33,353 bases of DNA from Candidatus Omnitrophota bacterium (GCA_041651675.1 JBAZIT010000002.1:1-33353); one strand, 5' to 3'. Positions 11,435-32,862 are shown, numbered from the stretch's first letter. Notes: generated by a model from the letters alone, not told the origin. Made by a program: numbers and translations.

Positions 11435-11437
11435 AAT

Positions 11438-14442: not shown

Positions 14443-14445
14443 AGT

Positions 14446-15081: not shown

Positions 15082-15082
15082 A

Positions 15083-16006
15083 TTAAACTCCCAAGATCGC
15101 GCAGATGCTCGCGATTATTCCCAGCACAAAAGCAAAACCCAGGAAATCCGCTACCCTGAATAAGCGCATTTTGGCTACCGAAACCTCGACTACTGCCACG
15201 ATAGCCGCGACAATGACCAAACGCCCCAGATACCATGAGGACCAGAAAACTATCTCCGCCAGGCTTCCGGATACCGGCAGGCCAACCGGAAAAACGATCT
15301 GGGCGATAAGAAGAAAGAAGATCGTCTGCTTAACGTAAGCAGCCATTTCGATGAGAGCCAACGGCCTTCCCGAATATTCCAAAACCATTGCTTCATGCAC
15401 CATCGTCAATTCCAGGTGCGTTTCCTGATTATCCACCGGAATGCGCGCGGTTTCCGCCAGCGCGATCAGGAATAAAGCCGCTCCCGCGATAATCGAAGAA
15501 GCCTGCACCCCGGAAACAGCGCCGAATGCCGCCAGACTGGTTGAGCCGCTCCTTAAAGATATGGAAAATACCACTAAACAAAGCGCAGGTTCAACCAGGC
15601 TGGAGATGAACATCTCTCTTGATGAGCCCAGTCCGCCGAAAGAACTCCCCGTATCTAACGCTGCCAGCGCCAGGAAAAAGCGGCCTAAAGCCAGGATAAA
15701 TATCAAAGCCAGAAGATCTCCCAGGTAATTCAGGGGAGTATAAAATATGAACACCGGAATAAGTAAAGCAGCGCACAAAGTAGAACCAAGAACGACAAAA
15801 GGAGCAGCCTGGAATATCCAGGAAGCGGTATCGGAAACCACCTCCTCTTTCAAGAATAACTTGGACAGGTTATAATAAGGTTGCCAGATGCTCTGGCCTT
15901 TGCGCAGGCGCAGGGAATTTTTTATTTTAGTAATCAGCCCGCTCAACAAAGGGGCAGCAGCCATAAAGAAAACCAGCTGCAATAATATAAAATATATTTT
16001 ATTCAT
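15083..16006 (-). CDS. NuoH/HycD-like membrane subunit
   Basis: 307 aa, polytopic, with the motif context ETARIPVDNQETHLELTMVHEAMVLEYSG typical of HycD/NuoH. Confidence 0.8.
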   Translation of the reverse strand: MNKIYFILLQLVFFMAAAPLLSGLITKIKNSLRLRKGQSIWQPYYNLSKLFLKEEVVSDTASWIFQAAPFVVLGSTLCAALLIPVFIFYTPLNYLGDLLALIFILALGRFFLALAALDTGSSFGGLGSSREMFISSLVEPALCLVVFSISLRSGSTSLAAFGAVSGVQASSIIAGAALFLIALAETARIPVDNQETHLELTMVHEAMVLEYSGRPLALIEMAAYVKQTIFFLLIAQIVFPVGLPVSGSLAEIVFWSSWYLGRLVIVAAIVAVVEVSVAKMRLFRVADFLGFAFVLGIIASICAILGV

Positions 16007-16007
16007 T

Positions 16008-17843
16008 TTAAAATTTAGGCATAAAAATTATCAATAATAATACTGTCGCGAATATATACGCCAGGTACAGATGGATACTGCCCGGCTGGATCCGGCGCAT
16101 AAACTTAGCCGCCCTGATCACCAGGCCTACCAGCGGCTGATAAATGTATTTTCTGAATACCGGCGTAGTATGCGTTTCATAGGTAAAAGACTTAACATGG
16201 TAAAATGATTCCCGGACCTTCTGGGTCTTACGGTAAGGCAAAAGAAAAAAACTAAAGGCGATACGGAACGGCTTGGAAAAGGCTGTCGCGGTATATTCAT
16301 TGCGCGCATTCAGTTTGTAATAACCGCAATCCCAGGTGTTCAACATTACCGCTTTTTTACGGCCGGTTAACCGGTACACAACCAGGCCCGCAATACCCAG
16401 CGCGATCAAAGCCAAAGCCAACCAGGGAGTAGAAAGATAAACGCCTTGTCCGGCTTGCGGGCTTAAGATGAAATTGTTCAGGGAGAATTTCATACTGCTT
16501 ATATCAATGCCGGTTACGCTCCCGGTAATCTTTGCTAACAATTTTATAATCCAGGCGGCTAGTAACCCGAAAATAACGGCCAAAAGCGCTAAGAAAAACA
16601 TGCCTGCCCGCATAGATAAAGGGACTTCCTGCGCGGATCTGGCGTAATTACTCCTGGGGAGAGCCAGGAAGGTTACCCCAAAAGCTTTGACAAAACAAGC
16701 AGCTGCCAAGCCGCTGGTTAAAGCTAACAAGCTGGCGCAAACTCCCAGAAAAAGCTTGGTCCCCCCGGCCACTTGAAAAGCCCCCAAAAAGAAAGCCTGT
16801 AAAGTCAGCCATTCGCTGACAAAGCCATTTAAAGGCGGCAAAGCTGAAATGGCCATTGCGCCGATCAGAAAATAAAGCGCGGTCTGCGGCATTTTTTTGA
16901 TCAGGCCTCCTAATTTTTCAATATCGCGCGTGCCGGTCGCCTTGTAAACGCTTCCAGCGCATAAAAACAAAAGGCCTTTAAAGATCGCGTGATTTACTAA
17001 GTGGTACAAACCGGCAATCAGGGAAAAAACCGCCAGGTACGGTAAATTTAAACTGATAAAGAACATGGCCAGCCCTACCCCTAACAAAATTATTCCTATA
17101 TTTTCCACGCTGTGATAGGCCAGGAGTTTTTTAAGGTCATGCTCCATAAGCGCATAAATAACACCTACCAGGCAGGAAATCAGCGCGAGGATGAGAACTA
17201 AGATCCCCCACCAGGAAGAATTTACTCCGAGGATGAAGATCACAAACCGGATTATCCCGTAAATGGCGGTTTTGATCATTACGCCGGACATAAGGCTTGA
17301 GATATGGCTCGGCGCCTGCGGATGAGCATAAGGCAGCCAGATATGCAACGGGACTATACCGGCTTTAGTCCCGAAACCGATCAGGAGCAGCAGGAATACG
17401 ATATTTCTAACCTGAAGAGGCATTGACCGGCAGGCCTCTTTAATCGCCAGGAAATCAAATGCCTGCGCGTATTGATACATAATCATGAATGCCGCTATTA
17501 AAAAAGCTGTTCCAATATGCGTCATGATTATATAAATCGCTCCGGCCTGAATGGATTTGTCGTGCGCGGTATCAAAAACCACCAGAAAATAAGAAACCAG
17601 GGACATTATCTCCCAGACAATAAGAAAAATTAAGGCGTTAGCCGCGGTAACCACCGCCGCCATGGATAAAACAAAAATAATCAACAGAAACCAGGCCAGG
17701 ATTATCTTGGCAGGCGAATATTCCCCCTTGAGATAACTGAAAGAATAAACAGCTGAAGGCAGTGAAACAATGAAGATAACGGAAAGGAAAAATACGGCGA
17801 GCGGATCGAATAAAAAAAACTGTTTGGGGAAAAGATTTAACAT
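16008..17843 (-). CDS. NuoL/HyfB/HycC-like antiporter-type membrane subunit
   Basis: 611 aa with GTKAGIVPLHIWLPYAHPQAPS and LLAYHSVENIG motifs. It is the first gene of the cluster. Confidence 0.85.
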   Translation of the reverse strand: MLNLFPKQFFLFDPLAVFFLSVIFIVSLPSAVYSFSYLKGEYSPAKIILAWFLLIIFVLSMAAVVTAANALIFLIVWEIMSLVSYFLVVFDTAHDKSIQAGAIYIIMTHIGTAFLIAAFMIMYQYAQAFDFLAIKEACRSMPLQVRNIVFLLLLIGFGTKAGIVPLHIWLPYAHPQAPSHISSLMSGVMIKTAIYGIIRFVIFILGVNSSWWGILVLILALISCLVGVIYALMEHDLKKLLAYHSVENIGIILLGVGLAMFFISLNLPYLAVFSLIAGLYHLVNHAIFKGLLFLCAGSVYKATGTRDIEKLGGLIKKMPQTALYFLIGAMAISALPPLNGFVSEWLTLQAFFLGAFQVAGGTKLFLGVCASLLALTSGLAAACFVKAFGVTFLALPRSNYARSAQEVPLSMRAGMFFLALLAVIFGLLAAWIIKLLAKITGSVTGIDISSMKFSLNNFILSPQAGQGVYLSTPWLALALIALGIAGLVVYRLTGRKKAVMLNTWDCGYYKLNARNEYTATAFSKPFRIAFSFFLLPYRKTQKVRESFYHVKSFTYETHTTPVFRKYIYQPLVGLVIRAAKFMRRIQPGSIHLYLAYIFATVLLLIIFMPKF

Positions 17844-18009: not shown

Positions 18010-18588
18010 TTAATAATTCTCCGCCAGTAATTCGTAAAACGACTGCGGGTGTTTGCAGGCAGGGCATTGCTTCGGAGCTTCGCTGCCTTCGGAAACATAG
18101 CCGCAGTTAAGGCAGTGCCATTTTACCGGCGCCTTTTTCTTGAACACCTCTGCTTTGGCGACATTATTAATCAATTTTCTGTATCTGGCTTCATGGAACT
18201 TCTCTACCTTGGATATCTGCTCAAAAGAACTCGCTACCTCGGGGAACCCCTCAATTTCCGCGGTCTTGCCAAAGTCCGAATAAAGAGTAGTCCACTCCAT
18301 ATTTTCTCCGGCAGCAGCCTCTTCCAGGTTGGTCTTGGTATCTTTGATCATCCCTGCAGGGTAGGAAGCAGTAATCTCCACGTCTCCGCCTTCAAGATAC
18401 TTAAAAAATACCTTAGCGTGCTCTTTCTCGTTCTCCGCGGTCTCCATAAAGATATTGGCGATCTGCTCAAAGCCTTCTTTGCGCGCGGCGCTGGCAAAAT
18501 ACGTATAGCGATTGCGCGCCTGCGCTTCTCCGGCAAACGCCGCCAGGAGATTCTTTTCTGTCTTAGTGCCCTTAATTGATTTACCCAT
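18010..18588 (-). CDS. rbr: rubrerythrin
   Basis: The ferritin-like di-iron region reads [23 protein letters not shown]...[10 protein letters not shown]. The C-terminal rubredoxin-like domain has CLNCGY...CPACKHP. GGAGGA RBS precedes ATG 18588, so the track's 15-aa N-terminal extension is unlikely. Confidence 0.92.
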
Positions 18589-18601
18589 CAGCCCTTCCTC
18601 C

Positions 18602-18727
18602 TTATCCTTCGATTTTTTCCATAGGCTTCTCACAACAAACTAATTCACCTCCGCCTACTTTAGTCACCACTACCTCATTCCCGCATACGCTGCAACGGTA
18701 TTTTTCGCCTGTATTTTTAACACCCAT
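18602..18727 (-). CDS. desulforedoxin-like small iron protein (41 aa)
   Basis: Not in the ORF track. Sequence is [41 protein letters not shown], which has the CxxCGN...CC pattern of desulforedoxin. AAGGAG lies 6 nt upstream of ATG 18727. Confidence 0.75.
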
Positions 18728-20068: not shown

Positions 20069-20683
20069 TCAGCTATTTTTATAGCTTTCCCGTTTTTTAC
20101 TGACCTTGAGCTTGGATTTTTGGGCCAGCCGGATACTCTTTTTCCAGGGCTTAGCTTCCCCTTCTGTCTTCTTCCAGGGTTTCTGCTCACCCGAGCCCTT
20201 TTGCCAGGGCTTAGCCTGATCTTTTCTTTTACGCCAGCGCATCGGATTATCCTGGAACCCCTTACGCGGCTTAGCTTCCTCCTGCATCCCGATTAACCCC
20301 TTACGCTTCATATAACTTCGCGTGCGCCTTCCACCCTTGTATGTACCTGGCAGCCTAGAGAAACGTACTTGTGGCAGTTGCGGTTTAGGTTTCGGCTTAT
20401 TTTTTTCTTTTAACTTGCGGCTGGCCTGAGCTTCTTCTTTGGTGCGCGCCGGGCCCACATTAAGCAAACGGCCCATGAATTCTTTAGCATTAAGTCCGGC
20501 TATCGCGGCGAGTGCCTGCGCTTCATCCGGAATATCCACAAAACCAAAACCCCTGGACTTGGGCGCGGTTTTTTGCTTCTCCATTACAATTACTACGGAA
20601 AGAACATCTCCAAAGCCTTCAAACAGCTTCTTTACATCCTCCTCATTAGCTTCAAACGGTAAATTACCCACGAAAATATTCAT
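20069..20683 (-). CDS. RRM-type RNA-binding protein with a basic repeat tail
   Basis: RNP2 is IFVGNL and RNP1 is RGFGFV. The C-terminal Lys/Arg-rich tail contains three KPW(Q/K)K repeats. Confidence 0.85.
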   Translation of the reverse strand: MNIFVGNLPFEANEEDVKKLFEGFGDVLSVVIVMEKQKTAPKSRGFGFVDIPDEAQALAAIAGLNAKEFMGRLLNVGPARTKEEAQASRKLKEKNKPKPKPQLPQVRFSRLPGTYKGGRRTRSYMKRKGLIGMQEEAKPRKGFQDNPMRWRKRKDQAKPWQKGSGEQKPWKKTEGEAKPWKKSIRLAQKSKLKVSKKRESYKNS

Positions 20684-20684
20684 T

Positions 20685-21059
20685 TTAAATTTCTCTGTTC
20701 TTCTTTCTTTTTTTTGATTTAACTACTGAACATAATACATCCGCAAACGGAGACAATTTTCCGCCTTCGTAAGGGAATTCTTTACAGTGGGCAGGCTTCA
20801 AATCATAATTGACCTTATGGATCGAGCACAGGCCTTTAGGGGTAAGAAAAGAACAGCGGTTGTCCTCAACGCTCGTGCCCACCCGGTAGCCGGAAGGATA
20901 ATCTCCATCCTTTTCCAGATGGTAAAAATCCCCTTTTAGCCCAAGGGCTAATATTTTTTTAGCTTCATCCAGGTCTACCCAGGCTCCAAAATTACAACAG
21001 GAATGCTGTTCCCTGCATTTCAGGCAATCAATCTTCTGTGTTCCTTTTTTCGGTTTCAT
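20685..21059 (-). CDS. YkgJ-family (UPF0153) cysteine-cluster protein
   Basis: CLKCREQHSCC (the CxxCxxxxxCC context) and CSFLTPKGLCSIH...HCKEFPY are present. Confidence 0.65.
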   Translation of the reverse strand: MKPKKGTQKIDCLKCREQHSCCNFGAWVDLDEAKKILALGLKGDFYHLEKDGDYPSGYRVGTSVEDNRCSFLTPKGLCSIHKVNYDLKPAHCKEFPYEGGKLSPFADVLCSVVKSKKRKKNREI

Positions 21060-21076: not shown

Positions 21077-21115
21077 AAAAAAATAGGGCTCGGCACAAAT
21101 AATGCCGGGCCCTAT
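21077..21115 (-). terminator. rho-independent terminator after the cspA-like gene
   Basis: Minus strand reads ATAGGGCCCGGCA-ttatttg-TGCCGAGCCCTAT, 13 bp with one mismatch, followed by TTTTTTT. Confidence 0.8.
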
Positions 21116-21127: not shown

Positions 21128-21328
21128 TTATAACTTGACGACCTTAGTCGCCTGTTCGCCTTTAGGGCCCTGTTCGATCTCAAATTCGACCTGCTGGCCT
21201 TCAGCTAAAGACTTGTATCCTTCGCCCTGAATAGACGAATGATGCACAAATACATCCTTTCCGTTCTCCGGGGTGATAAAACCATAACCTTTTTGGTCAC
21301 TGAACCACTTTACTGATCCTTTTACCAT
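21128..21328 (-). CDS. cspA: cold-shock protein CspA family
   Basis: [33 protein letters not shown]..., with canonical RNP1/RNP2. AAGGAGG RBS. Confidence 0.95.
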
Positions 21329-21558: not shown

Positions 21559-22971
21559 CTAGGTTATCCTCCTGGCCCTTTGGTATTGGTTATGCTCCTT
21601 GATCCCTCTTAAGAAAGTGTATGTCCCTACTAACTTAGCCGCGGAGATTACCCATCTGTACCACAAATATTCAGTAAGGCTCAGGAACATAAGATACGCC
21701 GTATAACCCAACGGAAACAACCTCTGGACGCGGACGAAGGAAAATATGGAAAAGATCGAAGTGACCGCCTGGGTCAGGGTCATAAGCAAAGCAAATAAAA
21801 GAAAAACCTTTATGTCGAGCAAGCCGGACAGCCACCCCAGGCCGATAAAAAATATCCCGGCGAGCTCAAAAAACACCCCCAAGACCTCGTAAAGAAGAAA
21901 GTACGGCAGAGTAAGGAAGGCGAAAACGCCAAAACGCGGATTAAGGATCATGTATTTATAGTGGGCCACGGTCTCGTTGGTGACCCTCTGCCAGCGGCTG
22001 CGCTGCGAGATAATTGAAGAAACGCTGCTTGGGCCTTCAGTCCAGCCTACCGAATACGGCAGCATGACTATGCGGTAATCTTTATCTTTGTTCTTTACCA
22101 AATAGTCGTGGGCGCGGAAAGTAAATTCAATGTCTTCGCAGGTAAAATCCGCCGAGAAACCTCCTAACTCGTATAAAATATCCCGGCGCCACATGCTGAA
22201 TCCGCCCGCCACAACCGGCATAGCGTTATACTTGCTTAGACCGATGCGGTTGCCGATGAACGAACGGATATACTCCAGGTTTTGATAAGCGATCAGGGGA
22301 TTGAGGGAAAAACGCTTCTCCAGGATCCTGCCGTCCTTGATCCTTAGGTCGTTGGAAAGCCCGAAATAGCTGCCTATTCCTATAATCTTGTCCGGATCCC
22401 TGCCGACATGCGCCATTACTTTAAGCAGCGCGTTCTGCTCTAAGACGGTATCAGCATCCACCACGCACACATATTCATTTCTGGCAAAATTAAGCCCGGC
22501 ATTAACCGCTCCCGCCTTCTTTAAACCCTTATCCTTGCTGATCACCGTAACATTGGGGTATTTCGTGCTTTTAAATATAGTGCGGATAACGCCGTCTTTA
22601 TAATGCTTTATATACGGCATATCCAGGGGCTTTGACTCCAAGATCTTATTCACAATCTCCAGGGTATTATCCTGCGAATCATCATCAACGATAATTACCT
22701 CAAATTTAGGATAATTAAGGTTAAGGATGGATAATAAGGCGTCGGCGATCCAGCCCTCCTCATTTCTGGCTGGCATGATAATACTGACGGATAAAGCGTT
22801 ACTGGCCAGGTAGGCCAGGGGATAATCTTCTGTCCGGCTCTCCCAGGACCTTTTCCTGCCTTCGATATAACCAAGAGCCGCTAGAAAAAGATAAAAAGCG
22901 CTAAGGAACAAAAAATAAGCGAAGAAAAAAATAAAAATAAAATAAGTAAAATTAGCGATAAATACAGCCAT
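21559..22971 (-). CDS. processive family-2 glycosyltransferase (PgaC/YaiP/cellulose-synthase-like polysaccharide synthase)
   Basis: N-terminal TM helices, then VDDDSQD, VVDADT, GGFSMWRR and the QRSRWQRV (QxxRW) motif, followed by C-terminal TM helices. Confidence 0.85.
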   Translation of the reverse strand: MAVFIANFTYFIFIFFFAYFLFLSAFYLFLAALGYIEGRKRSWESRTEDYPLAYLASNALSVSIIMPARNEEGWIADALLSILNLNYPKFEVIIVDDDSQDNTLEIVNKILESKPLDMPYIKHYKDGVIRTIFKSTKYPNVTVISKDKGLKKAGAVNAGLNFARNEYVCVVDADTVLEQNALLKVMAHVGRDPDKIIGIGSYFGLSNDLRIKDGRILEKRFSLNPLIAYQNLEYIRSFIGNRIGLSKYNAMPVVAGGFSMWRRDILYELGGFSADFTCEDIEFTFRAHDYLVKNKDKDYRIVMLPYSVGWTEGPSSVSSIISQRSRWQRVTNETVAHYKYMILNPRFGVFAFLTLPYFLLYEVLGVFFELAGIFFIGLGWLSGLLDIKVFLLFALLMTLTQAVTSIFSIFSFVRVQRLFPLGYTAYLMFLSLTEYLWYRWVISAAKLVGTYTFLRGIKEHNQYQRARRIT

Positions 22972-22976
22972 ATTAA

Positions 22977-24260
22977 TCAGTCCTTGCGGCCGGCGATACC
23001 TCGTTCCAAAGTATCCGCCGCCTGCTCGTCTATATTCCTTATGATGTCCAGCATCTTGCCCTGTTCCTCTCCCGGTAGGCCTAATAACGCTGCTCCGAGC
23101 CCAGCATAAGCGCAGGAGACGATTAACCCCTTTAACAGGAACTCTGCCGCCTCTTTTTCCTTCTTGGATCTGGACAAGATCTCCTTAAACAGCTTAATGA
23201 TGTAGCCGGATTCCTCCAGCGCCTCAACGGATATCCTCCTGGCCATTTCATCGTCACCATACAGAAAATCCTCCGCATAAGAAAGGCATATTTCTATGTT
23301 CGCGGCCATCAGGAATTTAACGCTTTCTATGACCGAAAGAGAACCGTCATTGATCCTGCCCATGATCTGAGGCAGACCTTCTTTACCTAAAACTTTAAAA
23401 AGGGACTTGACTGCGCAAACCCTGACCTTCCAAAAATCATCGGTAAGGCATTTCGTAATAATGCTCGCTGAATCTCGGCTGCCGAACTCCCCCAAACAAT
23501 CGCAGGCTGAAGCGCGCACTTCCGCGGATTTATCCCCGGTCAGCTCCTCAATCTTTTGGCGATACTGCAAGGCCTTAAGCCTTCCGATGAGCTTGACTGC
23601 CCAACTCCTGACCTCCGGGTCAGGGCTGGCGGTTAATCCAATGGCCTTGACCGCTATTTCCGGCGGGAATGATTCTAAGAGCGAAAATATCCGGTAGCGG
23701 TAAAAAGAACGCTTTTCTATAAAATCCAAAAGGATGCCGGCAGACAGAGCACTCCTGATCTGCCCAAGCGCAAGGATCGAAAAATATGCGATATCAGCGT
23801 CCCTATCGTTAATTGTTCTTTGAAGGGTATCTAAAGATGCGGCGGCCTGCGCATACCCCAGAGTTAAAATGGCTTCGATACGGCGCCATTTATTCCAGGA
23901 GAATAGAGCTGTTTTTTCTATCTTTGCGATCTTTTCGGCTGAAACAAAACAACTCTTCAGGATTTCCTGCTCTGATTCATTAAAAAAAACTATCTCCCTG
24001 TTCCTGTTGGTAGTCACATCGAGGAATTGCTGCGGAGTAACTCCGGAGACTGACGCTAAGCAGGCCTCATTATCCGCTTCTTTCCCGGAGAGCACCAGCT
24101 CATAAACATTGCTCTTTATATTCAGTAAGGCGCGGTTACGCCTTTTCCAGGAGTATTCTCTGGCCAGCGAATAAAAAATAGTCAATAACCCCGCCGCGGC
24201 GACCAGATAAAGAAGTATTTTATCAATAGCCCAGATTAATTCCGGATAATAGTTGTGCAT
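22977..24260 (-). CDS. membrane-anchored HEAT-repeat protein
   Basis: N-terminal TM helix. Repeated PDPEVRSWAVKLIG, SAEVRASACDCLG and DDFWKVRVCAVKSL units are of the HEAT/PBS-lyase type. Confidence 0.7.
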   Translation of the reverse strand: MHNYYPELIWAIDKILLYLVAAAGLLTIFYSLAREYSWKRRNRALLNIKSNVYELVLSGKEADNEACLASVSGVTPQQFLDVTTNRNREIVFFNESEQEILKSCFVSAEKIAKIEKTALFSWNKWRRIEAILTLGYAQAAASLDTLQRTINDRDADIAYFSILALGQIRSALSAGILLDFIEKRSFYRYRIFSLLESFPPEIAVKAIGLTASPDPEVRSWAVKLIGRLKALQYRQKIEELTGDKSAEVRASACDCLGEFGSRDSASIITKCLTDDFWKVRVCAVKSLFKVLGKEGLPQIMGRINDGSLSVIESVKFLMAANIEICLSYAEDFLYGDDEMARRISVEALEESGYIIKLFKEILSRSKKEKEAAEFLLKGLIVSCAYAGLGAALLGLPGEEQGKMLDIIRNIDEQAADTLERGIAGRKD

Positions 24261-25097
24261 TTAGAATTTCAGCGATAAAGAAGTGTTAATACTGCGTTTA
24301 ATAAAATCGGGTTTTTCTGTTCCGTAGGAATAACCGACCCTGGCAATAGCCCAGGGGCAAACATTGAAGTTCAGCCCCCCAAAAACTATATATCCGGACT
24401 GATCGCGGGACGGAAGCTCAAAGATATCGTAAAGCCGCTCTCCTACCGCTGCCCCTAAAGAAAGGGCAAGGCGCTTGGTTAGCGCGAAGTTCCCCTTGAC
24501 CGTGCCGAATTGCGCCGTGCCCCGGCTTTCAGTAAGAGATAAACCGTAATCAACGCTGATATAATTATCCCCGAAATAATAGATCAACCCCGGATAAACC
24601 ATATGCGTATCGTTCTCAGAGTAATCCCGGTAATTATACCCTACCTGCCAAAAAAGATTTTTATGGAGGCGATGTCCGTATTCAATTATCGACTGGAGCT
24701 TATACATATAAGTAATATCCCAACCCCAGCCTCCTTCGATATGCGCATAAGAATTCGGGAAATTCATATAAGCCCCAAAGTTAGCGGTATAATTATTAAC
24801 ACTAAACCGGTTCCATTGAGAAATAGTACCGTACGCCTGGATATTGCGGTATTTATAGCCTATGCGGTTGGTAATCTCTCTCCATCTCCCGGGCCGCGAA
24901 CCCTGGATCACCTTGCTTCCTTCATAGTAAGAATCCCAAAAGAACTCCCCCTTTTCCCTGGCCTTCTCTTCCGGCACAACCTCAGGCCTCGGGATAGGGG
25001 CCCTTAATAGCTGTTCGGTCTGGGCTTCGCCGGCCGCATAAATCAGCGCAGGCCACCAGAGTATCGCAATAAAAATAAAGCTGATACATTTCTTCAT
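24261..25097 (-). CDS. outer-membrane beta-barrel protein (YaiO-like)
   Basis: Signal peptide, alternating aromatic/Gly-rich beta-strand pattern, and a C-terminal ...SLSLKF with terminal Phe. Confidence 0.65.
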   Translation of the reverse strand: MKKCISFIFIAILWWPALIYAAGEAQTEQLLRAPIPRPEVVPEEKAREKGEFFWDSYYEGSKVIQGSRPGRWREITNRIGYKYRNIQAYGTISQWNRFSVNNYTANFGAYMNFPNSYAHIEGGWGWDITYMYKLQSIIEYGHRLHKNLFWQVGYNYRDYSENDTHMVYPGLIYYFGDNYISVDYGLSLTESRGTAQFGTVKGNFALTKRLALSLGAAVGERLYDIFELPSRDQSGYIVFGGLNFNVCPWAIARVGYSYGTEKPDFIKRSINTSLSLKF

Positions 25098-25477
25098 TTC
25101 TTGTACTTCTCCGCTATCCCCAGGGTCACATTGATATTATCTATTTCGGACTGTAGATCGCCGGTCTTCAGGATAAATCCGGAGGCGTTAAATTGATTCG
25201 CCGCCTTAAACCGCTCTTCATTGCTGAAAGCCGTGATGATGAATATGGGTATTTTCTGGTCTTCTTTTCTTATCTCCCTTAAAACCTCCAGGCCGTTTAT
25301 CTCCGGCATCATTACGTCCAGGATAAGCGCGTCGGGTTTTTCCCGCCGGAATTTTTCCAAAGCCTCCCGGCCGTTCATCGCGGTGACCACGTTATAGCTG
25401 TTAGCCTCTAACCGCGCCTTCAATAACTGCAAAAAATCTATCTCGTCATCTACCAGCAATACTTTTTTCTTTGCCAT
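25094..25477 (-). CDS. single-domain response regulator (CheY-like receiver)
   Basis: VLLVDDE, LILDVMMP, IITAF and FILKT are present, so all receiver signature residues are there. Confidence 0.9.
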   Translation of the reverse strand: MAKKKVLLVDDEIDFLQLLKARLEANSYNVVTAMNGREALEKFRREKPDALILDVMMPEINGLEVLREIRKEDQKIPIFIITAFSNEERFKAANQFNASGFILKTGDLQSEIDNINVTLGIAEKYKK

Positions 25478-25494
25478 AAAAAATCCTTATCCAC

Positions 25495-26883
25495 CTATAT
25501 CCTATCCAGTTCTTTAGGATTCTCTTCAAAATAGCGCTTCATCTTTTTAAGTATATCCACCATGCTGGTCTTAGGGATAACTCCGGCAATCCTCTTAAGC
25601 TTAGCCAGGTCCGGGAACCGCTTTTTTACATCCTCAAACCTGTTCCCGTAATATTTCTGGTAGGGCTCAAAAACTATTTTCGAAGAGCTGTTGGTAATCT
25701 TTTTTATCTTCCGGGCAAGTTCTCTGATCGAAACCAGGTTTTTAGAGCCCAGGTTGATAACCTCTCCTACCGCCTCCCGGCTCTCTGAAAGTTTCAACAT
25801 TATATCTATAGCGTCGTCTATGTAGGTAAAACAGCGCGCCTGTTTTCCGTCGCCATATACGTAGAGCGGCTGATTCTGCCAAGCGGCCTTAAAAAACCGC
25901 GGGATGACCATTCCGTAGCGGCCTACCTGCCCAGGCCCCACTATATTAAAGAACCTGATAATCACAACCGGCAGGCCCCTTTCACGGTAATAACCGATAG
26001 CGAAAAATTCATCCAGCAGCTTTGAGCAGGCATAGCTCCACCTGTTCACATCCGGCGGGCCGAGCACCACATCATCGTCTTCCTGGAAAGGAAATTTCCT
26101 GGATTTCCCGTATACTTCAGAAGTTGATGTCAAGATCACTTTAACCCCTTTTGCCGAAGCGTATTTCAGGACGATACTGGTGCCGATAGTATCGTAGATA
26201 ACGGTATCCAGGGGCTTTTCGATAACATGTTTGACCCCTACCGTGGCAGCTAAATGATAGATAAGGTCACTCTCTTCCACAGCCTTGCTCAATATCGTAT
26301 CATCCGTTATTGAGCCGACGATCAGGCTAAAATTTTTGTTATTCAGCATATCCTGGATATTTTCCCTGCTCCCGGTAGAAAGATCATCGATGACAGTGAC
26401 CTTATAGCCCTGGGCCAAAAGACGCCTGGCCAGAGCCGAGCCGATGAATCCGGCTCCGCCGGTAATCAATATATTCTTGATTTTCTTAACGGCCGCCTCA
26501 TGGCTTGCCCCCTCCAGCGCGACCTTGATCCTGGCTAGGAACTCCTCCGGTTCATAAGGCTTGGTAATGTAATCCTGCGCGCCTAAATTAAAGGCATTTA
26601 CCTTATCCGATTGGTCCAATTTTGCGGTCAGCACGATCACGGGGATTCCCCGGGTTTGCTTATCCATCCGGATCTTGCGTAAAACCTCATAGCCGTCTAT
26701 TCCCGGCATGATTAAATCCAGGATTATCAGGTCCGGTCTATTGTCTTTAAGGAGCTTAAACGCGTCATCCGTAATATTGGCGACCGATACATTATAAGCA
26801 TGGCTTTTTAACCTGGCCGAGATCAGGTCTGTCGCGTCTTTATCGTCATCAATGATCAAAATATGTTTCCTATCCATAGTCAA
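25495..26883 (-). CDS. receiver domain fused to an NAD-dependent sugar-nucleotide epimerase/dehydratase (extended SDR, UXS/GalE-like)
   Basis: The REC part shows ILIIDDD, IILDLIMP, VLTAK and ITKP. The SDR part shows ILITGGAGFIGS (Rossmann fold) and the YACSK catalytic YxxxK. Confidence 0.88.
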   Translation of the reverse strand: MTMDRKHILIIDDDKDATDLISARLKSHAYNVSVANITDDAFKLLKDNRPDLIILDLIMPGIDGYEVLRKIRMDKQTRGIPVIVLTAKLDQSDKVNAFNLGAQDYITKPYEPEEFLARIKVALEGASHEAAVKKIKNILITGGAGFIGSALARRLLAQGYKVTVIDDLSTGSRENIQDMLNNKNFSLIVGSITDDTILSKAVEESDLIYHLAATVGVKHVIEKPLDTVIYDTIGTSIVLKYASAKGVKVILTSTSEVYGKSRKFPFQEDDDVVLGPPDVNRWSYACSKLLDEFFAIGYYRERGLPVVIIRFFNIVGPGQVGRYGMVIPRFFKAAWQNQPLYVYGDGKQARCFTYIDDAIDIMLKLSESREAVGEVINLGSKNLVSIRELARKIKKITNSSSKIVFEPYQKYYGNRFEDVKKRFPDLAKLKRIAGVIPKTSMVDILKKMKRYFEENPKELDRI

Positions 26884-28205
26884 GCTCTCCCTTTAATGAT
26901 CCTGGCGATCTGCTCTTTTATCTTCTGGCTGTCGTGGCGGATCAATTCCTGCTCGTGGGACAGATCCGCGATCACAATCCTGGCCTTAGTAAGCCTTCTT
27001 ATCCTGGTTAAATCTCCCGTTGGAACAGGGAACTGCCTTTTCTGGGCATACCTGGAAAGGGCATCCCTGCGCAGCTTCTGGTTATCCGCGAGGATAATAT
27101 AATCCAGGCAATCTCTCTTCAAATAGCGCAGTATTTCGCTGATATGATCAAAAGCATCATAGCCGAAAGTTTCTCCCGGCTTAGTCATGAGATTGCAGAT
27201 ATAGATCTTTTTTGCCCGGCTCTTAACTATAGCCTCGCGAATATCTTTGATCAAAAGATTGGTAATAACACTGGTATACAGGTCGCCCGGGCCGATAGTA
27301 ATGATATCGGAATTAATAATGGCGGAATAAGCATTGATGTCGCATTGCGCAACCGGCTTATGCCAGCATTCCCTGATCCGCAGTTCCGGGGAACGCCCCT
27401 TGCACAGGTCGATATTGGTTTCACCCTTGACGATACTGCCGTCTTCAAGCCTGGCATACAAAACCGACTCCGTGGAAGCAATAGGATAGACTAAACCGTT
27501 AATATTCAATATATCTCCAGCGCCCCTTACGGCACTGGACATTGAGCCTTCTATATCGCTGAGCACGGTCAGAAGAAGGTTGCCGAAGCTATGCCCCCGG
27601 AAACCTTTCCCCTTATTAAAGCGGTATTGGACGATCTTATTCATTATCTCAGGGGCATTGGACAGCGCAACCAAGCTTCTACGGATGTCCCCCGGAGGTA
27701 AAATTCCAAAAGAATCCCTTAACCTCCCGGAGGACCCTCCATCATCGGTTGTGCTGACAATAGAAATGGGCAGGATAGCCGGAATACTCTTAATGCCCAG
27801 AAGGAGGTTGAATAACCCCGTCCCTCCTCCGATACAAGAGATCCTGGTCTTCCTATTCAAGACCGCGCTTAGCCTGAGGTTAAGTTCACGAACATTATAG
27901 GGTTTAAAGATATAATCTGCCGCACCGGCCTGTTTGGCCGCTAAAATCGCGGAAGTCGATTTTTGACTCGATAATACCACAAAATATTTTTTTGACCGGG
28001 TAAGGATTCCCAGGACATTTCTTAGCAGGCGGGAATTTGCGGCATAAGAATCTTTATCCAGAATAACTATCTCGGATTTTTTCAGCCGCGGGGCTATTTC
28101 ACTATAGGCATTAGCTACCTCAATCTCCAGGGCCAGGCCGGATAACTCCTCTTTGAACCCGCGGACAAAAAGCCCCGAACCTATGAGCAGGAATTTTTTA
28201 TACAT
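26880..28205 (-). CDS. receiver-like domain fused to a YvcK/CofD-family (UPF0052) domain
   Basis: The C-terminal 320 aa show CIGGGTGL, STTDDGGSSGRLR and ILPPGDIRR, the YvcK/CofD signatures. The N-terminal ~118 aa have receiver topology (VILDKD, VVLSS, IFKPY), but the N-terminal acidic pair is replaced by GSG. Confidence 0.8.
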   Translation of the reverse strand: MYKKFLLIGSGLFVRGFKEELSGLALEIEVANAYSEIAPRLKKSEIVILDKDSYAANSRLLRNVLGILTRSKKYFVVLSSQKSTSAILAAKQAGAADYIFKPYNVRELNLRLSAVLNRKTRISCIGGGTGLFNLLLGIKSIPAILPISIVSTTDDGGSSGRLRDSFGILPPGDIRRSLVALSNAPEIMNKIVQYRFNKGKGFRGHSFGNLLLTVLSDIEGSMSSAVRGAGDILNINGLVYPIASTESVLYARLEDGSIVKGETNIDLCKGRSPELRIRECWHKPVAQCDINAYSAIINSDIITIGPGDLYTSVITNLLIKDIREAIVKSRAKKIYICNLMTKPGETFGYDAFDHISEILRYLKRDCLDYIILADNQKLRRDALSRYAQKRQFPVPTGDLTRIRRLTKARIVIADLSHEQELIRHDSQKIKEQIARIIKGRA

Positions 28206-28568
28206 TTAAGGAATAAATTCTCTTATCTTATTGAACAATTCTTCACCCGAAAAAGGCTTCAGAAGATATCCTTGCGCCCCGCAGGATCCTACTTTTTCAA
28301 CGATATTCTGGGTGCTGGCCGTAAAAAGGACTATCGGTATATGTTTTAATTTCTCGTCTTTTTTTATCCGCGAACATACTTCCGGGCCGTCTACTAAAGG
28401 CAGCCGGACATCCAGAAGCATAAGATCCGGCGATTCCCGGGCGGCTATTTCTAATGCCTGTTGACCATTCACTGCTGATAAAACCTGGTAACCTATCTTT
28501 TCCAGGCGGAAACAGACGACTCTTAACAAATCCGCTTCATCGTCAACGATCAAAATCTTTTTACCCAT
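28206..28568 (-). CDS. single-domain response regulator (CheY-like receiver)
   Basis: ILIVDDE, MLLDVRLP, LFTAS and LLKPF are present. Confidence 0.9.
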   Translation of the reverse strand: MGKKILIVDDEADLLRVVCFRLEKIGYQVLSAVNGQQALEIAARESPDLMLLDVRLPLVDGPEVCSRIKKDEKLKHIPIVLFTASTQNIVEKVGSCGAQGYLLKPFSGEELFNKIREFIP

Positions 28569-28583
28569 CTTGGCCCCTTTGCT

Positions 28584-31500
28584 TTAACTTAACGGTAAGC
28601 TAAAATTAAAAATACTCCCTTCGCCGGGCTGAGACTCTACCCAGATCTTCCCCCCATGCTTTTCAATTATATCCTTACATATGGATAAACCTAAACCGGT
28701 ACTCCCGGTTTTCCGGGTCATCCCCGAATCCAGCTGCCTGAATCTTTCAAATAAAAGAGGGATATCCGATTCTTTTATACCGATGCCTGTATCCTTCACC
28801 GACACGGTTATAAAATTACCGGCTTTGCCTGTCCGGATCTTAATGCCCCCTTTTTCCGTAAATTTGACCGCGTTATTCAACAAATTAATAAACACCTGGA
28901 TGATCCTATCCCTGTCAAATTGTATCTTAGGAAGTTTGCTATCGAATTCGAATTTCAAAGATAAACCCTTCTTCTCAATCACCCCGCGCATGATCTTTTC
29001 CACTTCTTTAGCTACCTCATTTATATCGTTAACCTGCATATTAAAGACCATCTTTCCGGATTCCAGCTTCTGAAAATCCAGTATATCGTTGATCAACCTG
29101 GCCAGCCTATCTACATTTCTCTTGGCGATATCCAAAAATTCCTTTTGATCTTTGCTTATCGCCCCGGAAGTCCCGTCCAAAACAATACTGATCCCTTCTT
29201 TTATCGCTGCCAGAGGCGTCCTTAATTCATGCGAGACCATAGAAGTAAAATCTGTTTTCATATTGATTACCTCCCGGAGCGCGTTTTCCACTTTTTTACG
29301 CTCGGAGATATCCCGGGCCACGTGGACTGAACCAATAAATTCACCCTTGGCGTTAAATATAGGCGATACGGTTACCAATAAAGGCACACCGATACGGGGA
29401 TCATCGACTTCTTCCGTATGAGGAGCAAGATCCTCCTGGGCCTTAACCGTAGGGCAGCTGGGCCAGGGATGATCCAAGCCGTGGAACATCTCATAGCACC
29501 TTTTACCGATGATCTCTTCGGGTTTAAGTTTTAACGCTTCAGAGCAGGACCGGTTAACCTTAACTACGTTAAAGTTTTTATCCTGGATAAAGATCAAGTC
29601 CGAGATAGAATTAAAGGTCCTCTCCCATTCTTTGACGGCCATCTCTATCTGCTCTTCGGCTTGCGAAGCCTTAACCACCCGGATAGTTATATTGCTGATA
29701 ATCTCCAGTAAGGCGTACTCCTCAGAGGAAATAACCTGCTTTGAAAAAAGCGCTAAGACTCCGATTGTTTCGCCTCCGGATAACCCAAGCCTAAAACCGG
29801 CAAAAGAAACCAGGCCCAATTCAGCTGCCCACTCATGGTTATGCACTCGCGGGTCGTGCACTACGTCATTAGTCAGAAATGACGGGTACTCTCCCGAAGC
29901 AATACCGCCGATCTTATAACTGCCAAAAGGAACCCGAGCGTGTACTCCTCCGTCAATGTGCATATAACGGCCTGAGCTGGAAACTAAATGCAGGCACTTA
30001 TCCCGTTTAACGCACATATGCGGACCTTCCTTAATTGCGGCATGCAGGCATGTTGAATTGCACCGGTCTCCCGGCCCCATCAGCCAAATACGGCAGAAAT
30101 CAGCCCCGAAGATATCTACTACGCCATCCGTGATTATTTTAAGCTTCTCCCCCATCTCTCCCGGATTAAGCAAAGCATTCTGCATTCTATTGAGTTTCTT
30201 TATGCGGGTTTCTGCTTTTACGCGCTCGGTGATATCCCGAAAAGTCCAGATACGCCCGAAATATTTTCCGTCTTTATCTATGATCGGCGAGGAATACCTG
30301 TCAAAAACCGTCCCGTCCCTGAATTCAACCTCGTCCTTACTGGTCTCCTCCCTGTGAGCATAGAGATAATTAACTTTGTCCAAAAACTGCTGCGGCTCTT
30401 TTACTCTGCTTAATACGTATTGCAAAAGTGCTTCGTCACTCTCATCATCAACAATATGCTGCGGGATTTGCCATAGTTCAATCAACCGCTTATTGGTCAG
30501 GATCTTCTTGCCATTTTCATCAACCACCAGTAATCCGTCAAGTGAAGCTTCATTTTGGGCTTCCAGAAATTCCGTTTTCCGTTTTAATTCATTCTCCATT
30601 GCCTTGCGCCCGGTGATATCGCGGGCAATAGTCGAAGCCCCAATGATCCTGCCCGAATCATCTTTAAGCGGGGATATAGTCAAAGACATACTCAGGCGCT
30701 TCCCCTCTTTAGTTATGCGCACTGTTTCATAATGCTCTATGTGTTCGCCATCTTTGATTTTATTGAATATGAAAACAGTTTCATTCTCTAACTCCGGAGG
30801 GACAATCAGGCTAATTGAACGGCCGATAGCCTCTCCGGCGGAATAACCGTAGATCTTTTGCGCGCCGTAATTCCAGCTGGTTATTGTTCCGTTAATGTCC
30901 TTGCCGATGATCGCGTCATCCGATGATTCTACGATCGCCGCCAGACGGCGCAGCGAGGCCTCTGTGCGTTTTCTCTCTGTGATATCGATAATTACTCCCA
31001 CCAGGCCCGCAACCTTACCATCCGGCCCCGGATAAGTGGACCGGTTAAAAATTACATCGTGATCAGTGCCGTCGGCATGACACAATTTACTTTCATAGAC
31101 CTGGACGCCGGGTTGTTTAAAAAGCGCTTCATCCATTTCACGGTATTTCTGAGCGATTGTTTTGTCCGAAAAAATATCAAATACAGTCCTGCCGACAATC
31201 TGATCTTTGCTGAGCCCTAAGAATTGTTCAACGGCTATATTAGAGCCCAGATAAACACCTTCTTTATTTTTATAGTAAACAGGGGTGGGGATATTATCGA
31301 TCAGGACCTGCAGGCGCTTCTGTGCGTAAGACACTTTGTCCACTGCCGCCCTGTTCAATTCTACGATTATGAATGTGCTGACGAGCAAGATAAACAAACC
31401 AAAAGCTATAAGAATGCCGATTACGCGGTGATGATATAATTTATCCTGGAGAACCGAGATACTTATATCCATTCCTATGCGCGAAATAACATTTTTCGTC

Positions 31501-32687
31501 TCAAAGTCGATGATCGGCCCATATACCGAGACCCAACTGCCCCACCTGTCTGTGTAGGGGCCCAAAATAAAAGCTTCGGGCTTAAAGAAATCCTCCTTTA
31601 GCCCGCCGGGGGCTTCACTATAAACCTGGCCGGGCGGCGAATAATCCGGAGAATCCTGCGGATCAGAATCCGCCAAGATCAGGATTTTATCTCCCTGCAG
31701 ACGCATAAGGTATACAAACCGGAGATCGATATTTGCCTTTTTTATCTCTTTTAGCTGTTCTTTAAGGCGCAGATAGTCGGGATTATTCAGATCATCCGCC
31801 GAGGCGCTCAGGGTTACCAGGCGCCGGGGATTAACTGCGGCAGCTGCAGTGTCGACTTTCGCGATAAATTCCTGATTGGTTATTTCTTTATAGTATTCAC
31901 CCACGCCCTGAGTAATGATCCAGCCCAAGATAATAAAACCGATACCTGAAAATAGCACTCTGGAGATATGGGCCTTTCTTCTAACTAGTGATAGATTAAG
32001 ATCAATCGCATACCGGGAAGAATACCAATACATCCATAGAGCGAAAGCAGACAGCATCGCTAAGATGCAGCGTAAGAGTTGTATCGGAAAACTAAATATC
32101 CTGAAAAAGACATCCTGATTGAAGAGTGTAGCGGAAAGAAAATAAGGAGGCTGGGAAGTTACTAACTTAGTTAAAGCATAGCAGCCAAAAGCCAGGCCTG
32201 CCAAGAAGAGCCAGGGCTTATACTCCGGCTTGGATCTGGAAGACCGCAAAAAAAAGATAATGGAAGCGCTTAAGCCCGCGCCAAAACCTAAAAAAGAATG
32301 CGCGGCAATACTGGCACCGTGAAGGCCGCTTCGCAGCCATCCTAAATATACTAATGAGAGTATGAGTATATGCGCCCAAACGCCTATGGGCTTTACGTCC
32401 AAGCCACTGAGGCTTTTACGGCTGAACTCGATAAGCAAGGCGAAAGAAACAATGAGAACGATTAAACGGATAACCTGGAAAATAAACGAATCAGCTATTA
32501 TAAAGGCGATAAGATCCAGCCACTCGTTCAGCGCATGGACCAGGCCGAATAAACCCAGCCAAAGCCAGGGATTGCCTTTTTTTTCGCCCTTAGCTAATAA
32601 AAAACAGGCTCCGGCAAGAATAAAAAAACTCAGGCCGTATAGAAAAAAAATATAATCTATCTGGGACCTGAGGAAATTAAATATCAT
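28584..32687 (-). CDS. large membrane sensor histidine kinase (multi-TM N-terminus, extracytoplasmic Cache-like domain, several PAS, GAF, HisKA, HATPase_c)
   Basis: About 8 N-terminal TM helices. Repeated PAS-type blocks end in ..DITERK/..DITGRK/..DISERK. The H-box is SHELRTPL, the N-box LLNNAVKFT, G1 DTGIGI and G2 GSTGLGLSI. There is no C-terminal receiver. Confidence 0.9.
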   Translation of the reverse strand: MIFNFLRSQIDYIFFLYGLSFFILAGACFLLAKGEKKGNPWLWLGLFGLVHALNEWLDLIAFIIADSFIFQVIRLIVLIVSFALLIEFSRKSLSGLDVKPIGVWAHILILSLVYLGWLRSGLHGASIAAHSFLGFGAGLSASIIFFLRSSRSKPEYKPWLFLAGLAFGCYALTKLVTSQPPYFLSATLFNQDVFFRIFSFPIQLLRCILAMLSAFALWMYWYSSRYAIDLNLSLVRRKAHISRVLFSGIGFIILGWIITQGVGEYYKEITNQEFIAKVDTAAAAVNPRRLVTLSASADDLNNPDYLRLKEQLKEIKKANIDLRFVYLMRLQGDKILILADSDPQDSPDYSPPGQVYSEAPGGLKEDFFKPEAFILGPYTDRWGSWVSVYGPIIDFETKNVISRIGMDISISVLQDKLYHHRVIGILIAFGLFILLVSTFIIVELNRAAVDKVSYAQKRLQVLIDNIPTPVYYKNKEGVYLGSNIAVEQFLGLSKDQIVGRTVFDIFSDKTIAQKYREMDEALFKQPGVQVYESKLCHADGTDHDVIFNRSTYPGPDGKVAGLVGVIIDITERKRTEASLRRLAAIVESSDDAIIGKDINGTITSWNYGAQKIYGYSAGEAIGRSISLIVPPELENETVFIFNKIKDGEHIEHYETVRITKEGKRLSMSLTISPLKDDSGRIIGASTIARDITGRKAMENELKRKTEFLEAQNEASLDGLLVVDENGKKILTNKRLIELWQIPQHIVDDESDEALLQYVLSRVKEPQQFLDKVNYLYAHREETSKDEVEFRDGTVFDRYSSPIIDKDGKYFGRIWTFRDITERVKAETRIKKLNRMQNALLNPGEMGEKLKIITDGVVDIFGADFCRIWLMGPGDRCNSTCLHAAIKEGPHMCVKRDKCLHLVSSSGRYMHIDGGVHARVPFGSYKIGGIASGEYPSFLTNDVVHDPRVHNHEWAAELGLVSFAGFRLGLSGGETIGVLALFSKQVISSEEYALLEIISNITIRVVKASQAEEQIEMAVKEWERTFNSISDLIFIQDKNFNVVKVNRSCSEALKLKPEEIIGKRCYEMFHGLDHPWPSCPTVKAQEDLAPHTEEVDDPRIGVPLLVTVSPIFNAKGEFIGSVHVARDISERKKVENALREVINMKTDFTSMVSHELRTPLAAIKEGISIVLDGTSGAISKDQKEFLDIAKRNVDRLARLINDILDFQKLESGKMVFNMQVNDINEVAKEVEKIMRGVIEKKGLSLKFEFDSKLPKIQFDRDRIIQVFINLLNNAVKFTEKGGIKIRTGKAGNFITVSVKDTGIGIKESDIPLLFERFRQLDSGMTRKTGSTGLGLSICKDIIEKHGGKIWVESQPGEGSIFNFSLPLS

Positions 32688-32862
32688 ATTCTTGCGTCTC
32701 CAGCGGGCTTCCGGTTTTTATAAGGCATGTATCCCCCTCCAAGAGATACTGTTTCTTTAAAGGCTCGGGGCGCAAACAGCTATGACTATTAATTATTATA
32801 AAGAAAATTCCGGAAGTAGCAAGAATTAAAACTGCAGTTAGGGTAAGCTGGAGGAGGCTTGT

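Follow-up and report, generated by a model that had tools for sequence, protein, structure and literature searches.

A putative synthase-dependent polysaccharide secretion locus with proposed layered two-component control in Candidatus Omnitrophota

Introduction

To our knowledge, all of the well-studied synthase-dependent exopolysaccharide (EPS) systems, those for cellulose, alginate, poly-N-acetylglucosamine (PNAG), Pel and Nfr, are switched on by cyclic di-GMP (c-di-GMP). Here we describe a set of eight genes from Candidatus Omnitrophota bacterium (GCA_041651675.1, JBAZIT010000002.1:1-33353) which encode a sensor histidine kinase, two stand-alone receiver (REC) proteins designated REC1 and REC2, a YvcK-type and a short-chain dehydrogenase/reductase (SDR) protein with N-terminal receiver or receiver-like domains, and a triad formed by an outer-membrane beta-barrel, a HEAT-repeat membrane protein and a family 2 glycosyltransferase (GT2). 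The window analysed was the whole contig of 33,353 nucleotides. The Omnitrophota are an uncultivated phylum of mostly ultra-small, probably host-dependent cells. We read the region as coding for a machine for synthase-dependent polysaccharide secretion, of previously undescribed composition and combined with layered two-component control, and would put the probability of this reading at roughly 0.55. No description of such a module was found in the literature searched, which covered YaiO, REC-YvcK, HEAT proteins with a synthase, Omnitrophota polysaccharide and pili, and Omnitrophota genomics.

The closest described systems each share a part of this arrangement. The Pga system of Escherichia coli (PgaABCD), which makes poly-beta-1,6-GlcNAc, has in common with the locus a processive GT2 with N- and C-terminal transmembrane (TM) helices, a small membrane partner and a barrel exit; no curated family scores higher with the GT2 than PgaC_IcaA, and the PgaA barrel is found among the structural matches of the window barrel. 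However, the locus has neither a PgaB deacetylase nor PgaD, its porin carries no tetratricopeptide repeats (TPRs) and is predicted to have about 14 rather than 16 strands, the membrane partner is a HEAT solenoid predicted to be cytoplasmic, and a receiver stands in place of c-di-GMP. The Bcs (cellulose) and Alg (alginate) systems likewise use a QxxRW GT2 which couples polymerisation to translocation, with a regulator in or next to the synthase, and the window GT2 gives a weak match to BcsA; in the locus, however, there is no PilZ domain on or next to the GT2, no partner of the BcsB or Alg44 type and no TPR porin (BcsC, AlgK/AlgE). The E. coli Nfr system (NfrB, a GT2-MshEN protein, together with NfrA and YbcH) is reported to be a minimal synthase-dependent system whose GT2 is under the local control of a signalling domain of its own (bioRxiv 10.1101/2021.10.01.462733). 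Unlike NfrB, the window GT2 has no MshEN domain, and among the related loci MshEN is seen only on a type II secretion-type (T2SSE) ATPase beside distant triads.

As far as regulation is concerned, the closest precedent is that of Myxococcus xanthus, in which the phosphorylated form of the single-domain response regulator EpsW directly activates the phosphoglycosyl transferase EpsZ at the post-translational level, in a system also linked to type IV pili (PMC12802240). EpsZ belongs to a Wzx/Wzy pathway, however, whereas the candidate target in the window is a GT2 of the synthase type.

The nearest named relative of the barrel, by family, is YaiO of E. coli, although the two proteins have no pairwise similarity. 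In E. coli K-12 (NC_000913, 380069-384616; included in our set as locus L100) yaiO lies in a co-directional cluster with yaiS (a deacetylase), yaiP (a multi-TM GT2) and yaiX (an acyltransferase gene disrupted by IS2), which looks like a cryptic synthase-type polysaccharide locus; no functional study of the cluster was found in the literature searched. The YaiO barrel is thus co-directional with a synthase-like GT2 in both cases (YaiP has the motifs DAD, ED and ExxRW), and the window GT2 is 25% identical to YaiP over the GT-A core, a resemblance at the family level. By contrast, the E. coli cluster is without the HEAT protein and the receiver and instead has the deacetylase and the acyltransferase.

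Results

A conserved barrel-HEAT-GT2 triad

On the sequence evidence, what is inherited together across the relatives of this locus is a triad with the hallmarks of a synthase and a porin, accompanied by a receiver (REC2) which looks phosphorylatable. Domains were assigned by Pfam and NCBIfam profile scans of all eight proteins. Relatives were collected from HEAT homologues and their contigs, from a genome scan with the HEAT alignment and from a metagenome scan with the GT2 alignment, and the window domains were mapped by phmmer onto all open reading frames (ORFs) of 99 loci (given L numbers below); these collapsed at 95% HEAT identity to 74 lineages, 64 of which make up an Omnitrophota-type clade. 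Two features of the synthase-dependent EPS class are present in the window, namely a processive GT2 with flanking TM helices and a co-encoded outer-membrane barrel, the gene for which precedes the HEAT gene in 43 of 43 assessable lineages of this clade; the GT2 gene follows the HEAT gene in all 62 that could be assessed. Two other features of the class, a periplasmic TPR or scaffold part and a recognisable c-di-GMP receptor, are absent. The finding of the same gene order in dozens of independent metagenomic lineages places the arrangement far beyond chance, and the order YaiO barrel, HEAT, GT2 is seen again in a distant, soil-metagenome clade (four of six assessable lineages), where the GT2 identity is 38-40%.

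Those members of the HEAT family which carry a source name come from Omnitrophota metagenome-assembled genomes (MAGs). One contig (L010) was binned as Candidatus Margulisiibacteriota, but this label is probably a binning artefact, as its HEAT protein is at least 95% identical to that of an Omnitrophota MAG contig (L018; L031 was also compared). Loci labelled Ratteibacteria (L016) and Elusimicrobia (L017) fall in a subclade which is without REC2 and has an SDR gene first.

The GT2 has one or more N-terminal TM helices, a GT-A domain with the motifs DDDS, DAD, CED and QRSRW, and about four C-terminal TM helices, and residues Q323, R324, R326 and W327 are invariant in 25 homologues; by these motifs it is a membrane-embedded, processive enzyme of the QxxRW type. 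It is much better conserved than its partner proteins, with 854 homologues at E<1e-10, a mean column identity of 71%, and the best 120 of the 854 at least 57% identical. Membership of the Pga, Bcs or NodC/chitin synthase families was considered and rejected, as all curated scores are far under their cut-offs: the nearest family, PgaC_IcaA (TIGR03937), gave 106.1 bits against a cut-off of 422.3 and BcsA/CelA (TIGR03030) 43.6 against 699.1, the C-terminal PilZ domain being absent, whilst PDB sequence matches to BcsA and hyaluronan synthase were weak. The tail beyond the last TM helix is only about 25 residues long. Its end (21559-21600, aa 457-470) is basic, with Y463 and R465 invariant and K467 and R468 near-invariant in the 25 homologues; it corresponds to no known motif, and a regulatory contact may lie here.

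The barrel protein scores above both YaiO cut-offs (PF19413, 32.4 against 23.9; TIGR04390, 39.2 against 32). In its AlphaFold2 (AF2) model (pLDDT 84.8) a signal peptide and about 30 residues of disordered linker precede some 14 strands joined by short loops. Neither Pfam, NCBIfam nor the model gave any sign of a TPR or periplasmic domain, and there is no TPR in any of the eight proteins. Foldseek returned the 14-stranded OmpG (TMq 0.62), generic porins, the PgaA barrel (4y25, TMq 0.58) and PelBC (9h80); as these are largely generic porins, only the strand number and the class of barrel are informative. By analogy with the porins of described systems, the protein would be the outer-membrane exit for the polymer.

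The AF2 model of the HEAT protein (pLDDT 89.4) shows a long N-terminal helix (residues 4-58) followed by an all-alpha solenoid, for which Foldseek matched only generic HEAT/ARM scaffolds (alphaRep, PP2A-A, importins) and gave no functional lead. Six K/R residues are clustered behind the TM helix, and in one homologue (P0055) this helix is preceded by an additional signal peptide with a lipobox and by a Pro/Glu-rich segment. The positive-inside rule and this variant with a second TM helix both indicate an N-out/C-in topology, and on these grounds a periplasmic scaffold was rejected. As the solenoid is predicted to be cytoplasmic, the protein would be an adaptor facing the same compartment as the GT-A domain and the receivers. 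Just inside the membrane, at aa 74-100, is a conserved motif, FLDVxTNRNRExVFFNExEQ.

REC2 and the regulator position

The gene directly upstream of the barrel encodes an orthologue of REC2 in 33 of the 43 assessable lineages, an SDR without a receiver in seven, and another protein in three. REC2 orthologues are approximately 50-60% identical; in an alignment of 14 of them the acidic pair (DD), the acceptor D, the T, the aromatic switch residue F and the K are all kept, together with a strongly conserved, family-specific output face on alpha4-beta5-alpha5 (TAFSNEERFKxANxFNASGFIxKT). REC2 stays beside the barrel gene even in loci with no kinase nearby.

Elsewhere, other signalling proteins take this place. 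In three distant loci (L085, L086 and L088) a fusion of MshEN, T2SSE ATPase and receiver abuts the barrel (698 aa, 5722-7818, in L088), in L071 a 1019-aa protein combining a Ser/Thr kinase with an FGE-sulfatase domain lies upstream of the triad (4830-7889), and in L093 (1101-6659) the order is HD_5 protein, sigma-54 activator, REC-PilZ, SDR, barrel, HEAT, GT2, the REC-PilZ protein, with the motifs RRWPR and DIGYGG, being two genes upstream of the barrel. Since signalling proteins are swapped here between lineages, the position upstream of the triad appears to encode the regulator of the machine. This is the best indirect evidence that REC2 may be the functional counterpart of a c-di-GMP receptor.

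For none of the eight window proteins did Pfam or NCBIfam give a match to PilZ, GGDEF, EAL, MshEN or helix-turn-helix (HTH) domains at E<=0.01, and for the HEAT protein and the GT2 none was obtained even at E<=10. However, the distant triads adjoining REC-PilZ, HD_5 and MshEN-ATPase-REC proteins show that the machine family is not intrinsically free of c-di-GMP; judged by domain content, it is only the Omnitrophota version which is without recognisable c-di-GMP parts.

A comparison of 30 loci with REC2 and nine without it offers a lead to where REC2 might act. Seven residues of the HEAT protein (D81, N85, R86, F92, F93, N94 and E97), all in the one juxtamembrane segment, are 97-100% conserved where REC2 is present and 0-33% where it is not, and GT2 residues H123, D126 and Y267 are likewise conserved only in the presence of REC2. 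HEAT residues 81-97 and these three GT2 residues are therefore candidate contact sites for REC2, although this is a weak lead.

The kinase, the remaining receivers and the layering of the locus

The kinase gives Pfam matches to three PAS domains, GAF, HisKA and HATPase_c, and its order is about seven N-terminal TM helices, an extracytoplasmic segment (approximately residues 265-420), three to four PAS domains, GAF, PAS, HisKA and HATPase_c. Only L005, L020 and L021 share nearly the same architecture, at 1368 aa, with a partial counterpart in L024; other relatives have kinases of 761-1056 aa with different sensor parts, or no adjoining kinase. Pfam and NCBIfam detected no receiver or histidine phosphotransfer (HPt) domain in the kinase and no separate HPt protein in the operon.

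Three receivers (REC1, that of the REC-SDR protein, and REC2) score above the Pfam cut-off, at 92-101 bits, and in alignments with CheY and about 13-14 orthologues they keep the acidic pair, acceptor Asp, Thr and Lys; all three look phosphorylatable. REC1, with canonical DD, D, T and K, has orthologues (185-219 bits) only in loci which also have the long kinase. With the EpsW model (NF041866) REC1 gave 54.8 bits against a cut-off of 200, and for REC2 the 25 best NCBIfam families listed do not include this model.

Beyond the core, the partner genes differ in how widely they are distributed. Of 30 lineages with at least 5 kb of upstream sequence, about half have an SDR gene (REC-SDR in nine, plain SDR in six), ten have a histidine kinase, the sensor parts of which differ, and seven have the pseudo-receiver-YvcK gene described below. 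The full eight-gene set with the 1368-aa kinase is confined to the close relatives L005, L020 and L021, L024 having nearly all of it. From these counts the locus appears to have been built in layers, with REC2-barrel-HEAT-GT2 as the core and the SDR, YvcK, and kinase with REC1 as successively narrower additions.

Fusions to nucleotide-sugar proteins

The CofD domain of the fourth receiver-like protein is clearly of the YvcK/GlmR family (TIGR01826, 295.2 bits against a cut-off of 196; PDB 2o2z/2hzb at 1e-62), in which it resembles GlmR/YvcK of the Firmicutes. Here, however, the protein bears a receiver remnant, sub-threshold at 19 bits against the Pfam cut-off of 30.2; in alignment GS replaces the DD pair and the acceptor Asp is not conserved, being N in L008, so that the domain is best described as a degenerate pseudo-receiver. 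An exhaustive search of 1.84 billion representatives found a homologous N-terminal domain on YvcK in only about six clusters at 50% identity, one of which (P0302) is a true REC-CofD protein with all catalytic residues; the window protein would thus derive, by decay of the receiver, from a REC-YvcK regulator of a rare type. According to the name of NCBIfam TIGR01826, YvcK/GlmR proteins bind UDP-GlcNAc, and the family is reported to act as an accessory uridyltransferase (PMC10128056).

In contrast to YvcK, the SDR bears an intact receiver. The SDR domain appears to fall in the UXS/ArnA-like clade of extended SDRs, the motifs STSEVYG and YACSK aligning with human UXS1, and its best PDB matches are 8vr2 (4e-51), human UXS1 (3e-47) and the C4-epimerase PelX (6wj9, 4e-40). 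The UXS-like motifs do not single out one substrate, since PelX-like epimerases and enzymes of the Pen/Pal type have scores almost as high; the best curated NCBIfam equivalog models are both below cut-off (148 against 294; 156 against 475). Response regulators with enzymatic outputs, such as PleD, CheB and PorX, are an established class, to which a receiver fused to an enzyme belongs. No description of a REC-YvcK or REC-SDR fusion was found in the literature searched.

Organisation of the operon

Coordinates are collected in Table 1. ORF calling confirmed the eight tightly packed genes at the positions and junctions of the initial annotation, all on the minus strand, the junctions from kinase to GT2 being 15 nt, 0 nt, a 4-nt overlap, 17 nt, a 4-nt overlap, 0 nt and 5 nt. 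The domain set which that annotation had read from the sequence (kinase, YvcK, SDR, YaiO, HEAT, GT2) was borne out by Pfam and NCBIfam, with the reservation that the receiver on YvcK is only a degenerate remnant; of the four receivers proposed, three are canonical (REC1, REC-SDR and REC2) and the fourth is not. Its observation that the operon is devoid of GGDEF, EAL, PilZ and HTH domains agrees with the profile scans, and its classification of the GT2 as processive agrees with the invariant QRSRW residues.

The REC-SDR ORF was called from a TTG, but there is an ATG two codons inside, giving 460 aa, which is the length of the orthologues; the true start is probably this ATG at 26877. Next to the operon on its downstream side is a gene for a cold-shock protein, and on its upstream side a fragment of an alpha/beta-hydrolase. 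As promoter and terminator matches in the region were no more numerous than in shuffled sequences, the operon boundaries are based on gene spacing and on the downstream cold-shock gene.

Table 1. Coordinates of the operon genes and of other features in the 33,353-nt window.
Feature	Coordinates	Strand	Length	Remarks
Sigma-70-like promoter match	32795..32822	-		TTGCTA-16-TATAAT, 10/12, upstream of kinase start; consensus match only, weak
Sensor histidine kinase	28584..32687	-	1367 aa	
REC1, stand-alone receiver	28206..28568	-	120 aa	Pfam Response_reg 92 bits
Pseudo-receiver (aa 1-118) + YvcK/GlmR-type CofD (aa 119-441)	26880..28205	-	441 aa	
Receiver + extended SDR	25495..26883	-	462 aa	TTG start
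REC2, stand-alone receiver	25094..25477	-	127 aa	Pfam 99 bits
YaiO-family outer-membrane beta-barrel	24261..25097	-	278 aa	
HEAT-repeat inner-membrane protein	22977..24260	-	427 aa	HEAT_2 94 bits
Processive-type GT2 synthase	21559..22971	-	470 aa	
CspA-like cold-shock protein	21128..21328	-		
Hairpin	21083..21115			13 bp, strong
Cys-rich ORF	20685..21059	-	124 aa	no Pfam match
RRM-domain RNA-binding protein	20069..20683	-		long basic tail
Rubrerythrin	18010..18633			
Hydrogenase-like cluster	10922..17843	-		
Diversity-generating retroelement	2109..4199	-		
ORF with variable repeat at 3' end	3519..4199		226 aa	no Pfam match
Variable repeat	3517..3645			
Reverse transcriptase	2409..3464			
Template repeat	2272..2397			
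RT-14 RNA	2109..2265			Rfam RF02921
bAvd accessory gene	1743..2084			

Other features of the window

Downstream of the operon, in 20069-21328, are the cold-shock gene, a strong hairpin, a Cys-rich ORF and a gene for an RRM-domain protein. Further along is a cluster resembling a group-4 membrane-bound [NiFe]-hydrogenase or Mrp-type complex, with genes for Oxidored_q6, a fused 30-kDa/49-kDa subunit (matching NiFeSe_Hases), NADHdh and two Proton_antipo_M proteins, after which comes a rubrerythrin gene. The window also holds a diversity-generating retroelement with a reverse transcriptase, an accessory gene, an RT-14 RNA and template and variable repeats, the latter at the 3' end of an ORF; several of the differences between the repeats are at T in the template repeat on the plus strand (A on the coding strand), which is the pattern expected of adenine-directed mutagenesis.

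Discussion

We propose that the inner-membrane, processive GT2 would polymerise a UDP-sugar and thread the chain through its own TM channel, with the single-pass HEAT membrane protein as its obligate partner and the YaiO-family barrel of about 14 strands as the exit through the outer membrane. A histidine kinase, here the adjacent 1367-aa membrane/PAS/GAF kinase, would phosphorylate REC2, and the phosphorylated form would dock on the cytoplasmic HEAT adaptor, on the GT-A domain or on both to switch polymerisation on, thus standing in for the PilZ and other c-di-GMP receptors of Bcs, Alg, Pga and Nfr. A further probable target of this kinase, in the present sub-lineage, is the receiver of the UXS-like SDR, through which it would tune a modified UDP-sugar, whilst the pseudo-receiver-YvcK/GlmR protein may couple the system to the UDP-GlcNAc pool, and REC1 may be an auxiliary, kinase-linked receiver which acts as sink or connector. 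On this scheme both precursor supply and export would be controlled by the system.

This scheme differs in several respects from that of the initial annotation, which had seen a phosphorelay acting on an eight-gene unit with synthase, scaffold and porin parts. As there is neither an HPt domain nor a hybrid kinase, the term phosphorelay is incorrect and the system is a branched two-component system. The synthase and porin parts of the analogy hold, but the HEAT protein is predicted to be cytoplasmic and so does not correspond to the TPR parts of PgaA, BcsC, AlgK or PelB. Synteny in relatives was recovered, although the unit under selection is REC2-barrel-HEAT-GT2, and the kinase, REC1, the pseudo-receiver-YvcK and the receiver fusion of the SDR are lineage-specific add-ons. 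The absence of c-di-GMP domains holds for the operon itself but not for the surroundings of the distant triads, which adjoin REC-PilZ, HD_5 and MshEN-ATPase-REC proteins. Of the findings that were named in advance as contrary to the proposal (no synteny in relatives, PilZ or GGDEF in the GT2 or HEAT protein, a non-processive GT2) none was made.

However, the reading of a receiver-gated synthase should be considered with caution, as a number of observations weigh against it. REC2 is linked to the HEAT protein and the GT2 by gene adjacency, and kinase and receivers are paired by proximity, many lineages having no kinase beside the core. REC2 is not obligatory, given that 10 of the 43 assessable lineages are without it upstream of the barrel. 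The residues which correlate with REC2 are confounded by phylogeny, because the loci lacking REC2 form the most divergent subclade. The barrel is small and generic, and its role in polymer export is drawn from analogy and from the E. coli yaiO-yaiP parallel. The strong conservation of the GT2 (the best 120 of 854 homologues at least 57% identical) fits a housekeeping envelope polymer equally well, and the sequence is compatible with a hidden c-di-GMP site of the kind present between PgaC and PgaD.

One alternative is that the triad makes a constitutive, structural glycan of the Omnitrophota envelope rather than a conditionally secreted matrix EPS, with REC2 only fine-tuning its rate. The 854 matches and 71% mean column identity would be expected of such an enzyme, the module is present in a large number of Omnitrophota MAGs, and its neighbours are housekeeping genes which differ from lineage to lineage. 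Nevertheless, a dedicated receiver, regulators which can be swapped and adjoining sensor kinases all point to conditional control, and we regard a purely constitutive role as unlikely.

An explanation of much the same low standing is that the module is an accessory of type IV filament machinery, producing a polysaccharide for pilus-dependent adhesion, motility or attachment to prey, with REC2 as part of pilus-linked signalling and not as a free-standing environmental switch; this is compatible with a receiver-gated synthase and would change its biological role. In at least five lineages the triad has type IV filament genes as its immediate neighbours. Downstream of it in L001 are pilins, PilMNO and a secretin; MshEN-T2SSE, T2SSF, pilins and PilMNO lie upstream and co-directional in L003, L044 and L084; a PilT-like ATPase is immediately downstream in L005, L006 and L020; the MshEN-T2SSE-REC fusion abuts the barrel in L085, L086 and L088; and TadE and RcpC are downstream in L093. 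In Myxococcus and cyanobacteria it is established that type IV pili and the secretion of polysaccharide are coupled (PMC12802240; PMC9239167). On the other hand, there is no pilus gene in the 33-kb window, most loci have none within 10 kb, and type II secretion and type IV pilus genes have been reported flanking other Omnitrophota loci, so that some adjacency is to be expected by chance.

Less probable again is control through an unlinked DNA-binding response regulator, with the stand-alone receivers as phosphate sinks and the REC fusions as evolutionary leftovers. Single-domain receivers are often phosphate sinks, 33 kb of the genome is in view, and the pseudo-receiver of YvcK indicates that receiver decay does occur here. 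However, REC2 retains all of its switch residues and a family-specific output face, and it is found beside the barrel even without a kinase; a sink would be expected to travel with its kinase, as REC1 does and REC2 does not. Least probable, in our view, is that c-di-GMP gates the synthase through an unrecognised site, either at the GT2-HEAT interface or in the basic tail of the GT2, with the receivers upstream or in parallel: PgaCD does bind c-di-GMP without a recognisable domain, distant triads adjoin REC-PilZ (RRWPR, DIGYGG), HD_5 and MshEN-containing ATPase proteins, and the tail has its invariant and near-invariant residues, yet no PilZ, GGDEF, EAL or MshEN signal was found in the eight proteins, nor to E<=10 in the HEAT protein and the GT2, and the tail holds no known c-di-GMP motif.

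A synthase machine under receiver control is therefore the reading we prefer. A bolder version, which we put forward tentatively and consider doubtful, is that in Omnitrophota phosphorylated REC2, acting via the HEAT adaptor, has replaced the allosteric gate for which all characterised synthase machines use c-di-GMP receptors, distant relatives still having REC-PilZ, and that the machine is possibly coupled to type IV filaments with which these ultra-small, host-dependent bacteria attach. On that version the family would offer a natural series for comparing gating by a second messenger with gating by phosphorylation on one synthase chassis.

If the preferred reading is correct, the presence of a dedicated two-component receiver in the regulator position would mean that the gate of a synthase is modular, and the family would supply a phospho-controlled synthase for mechanistic comparison. 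It would also add two uncharacterised types of part, the cytoplasmic HEAT adaptor and the YaiO-type porin, the latter providing a functional hypothesis for the orphan yaiO-yaiP cluster of E. coli. The REC-SDR and pseudo-REC-YvcK fusions suggest that signalling may directly control nucleotide-sugar pools. For the Omnitrophota themselves, it would mean that a machine for a surface polymer, possibly connected with pili, is both widespread and highly conserved.

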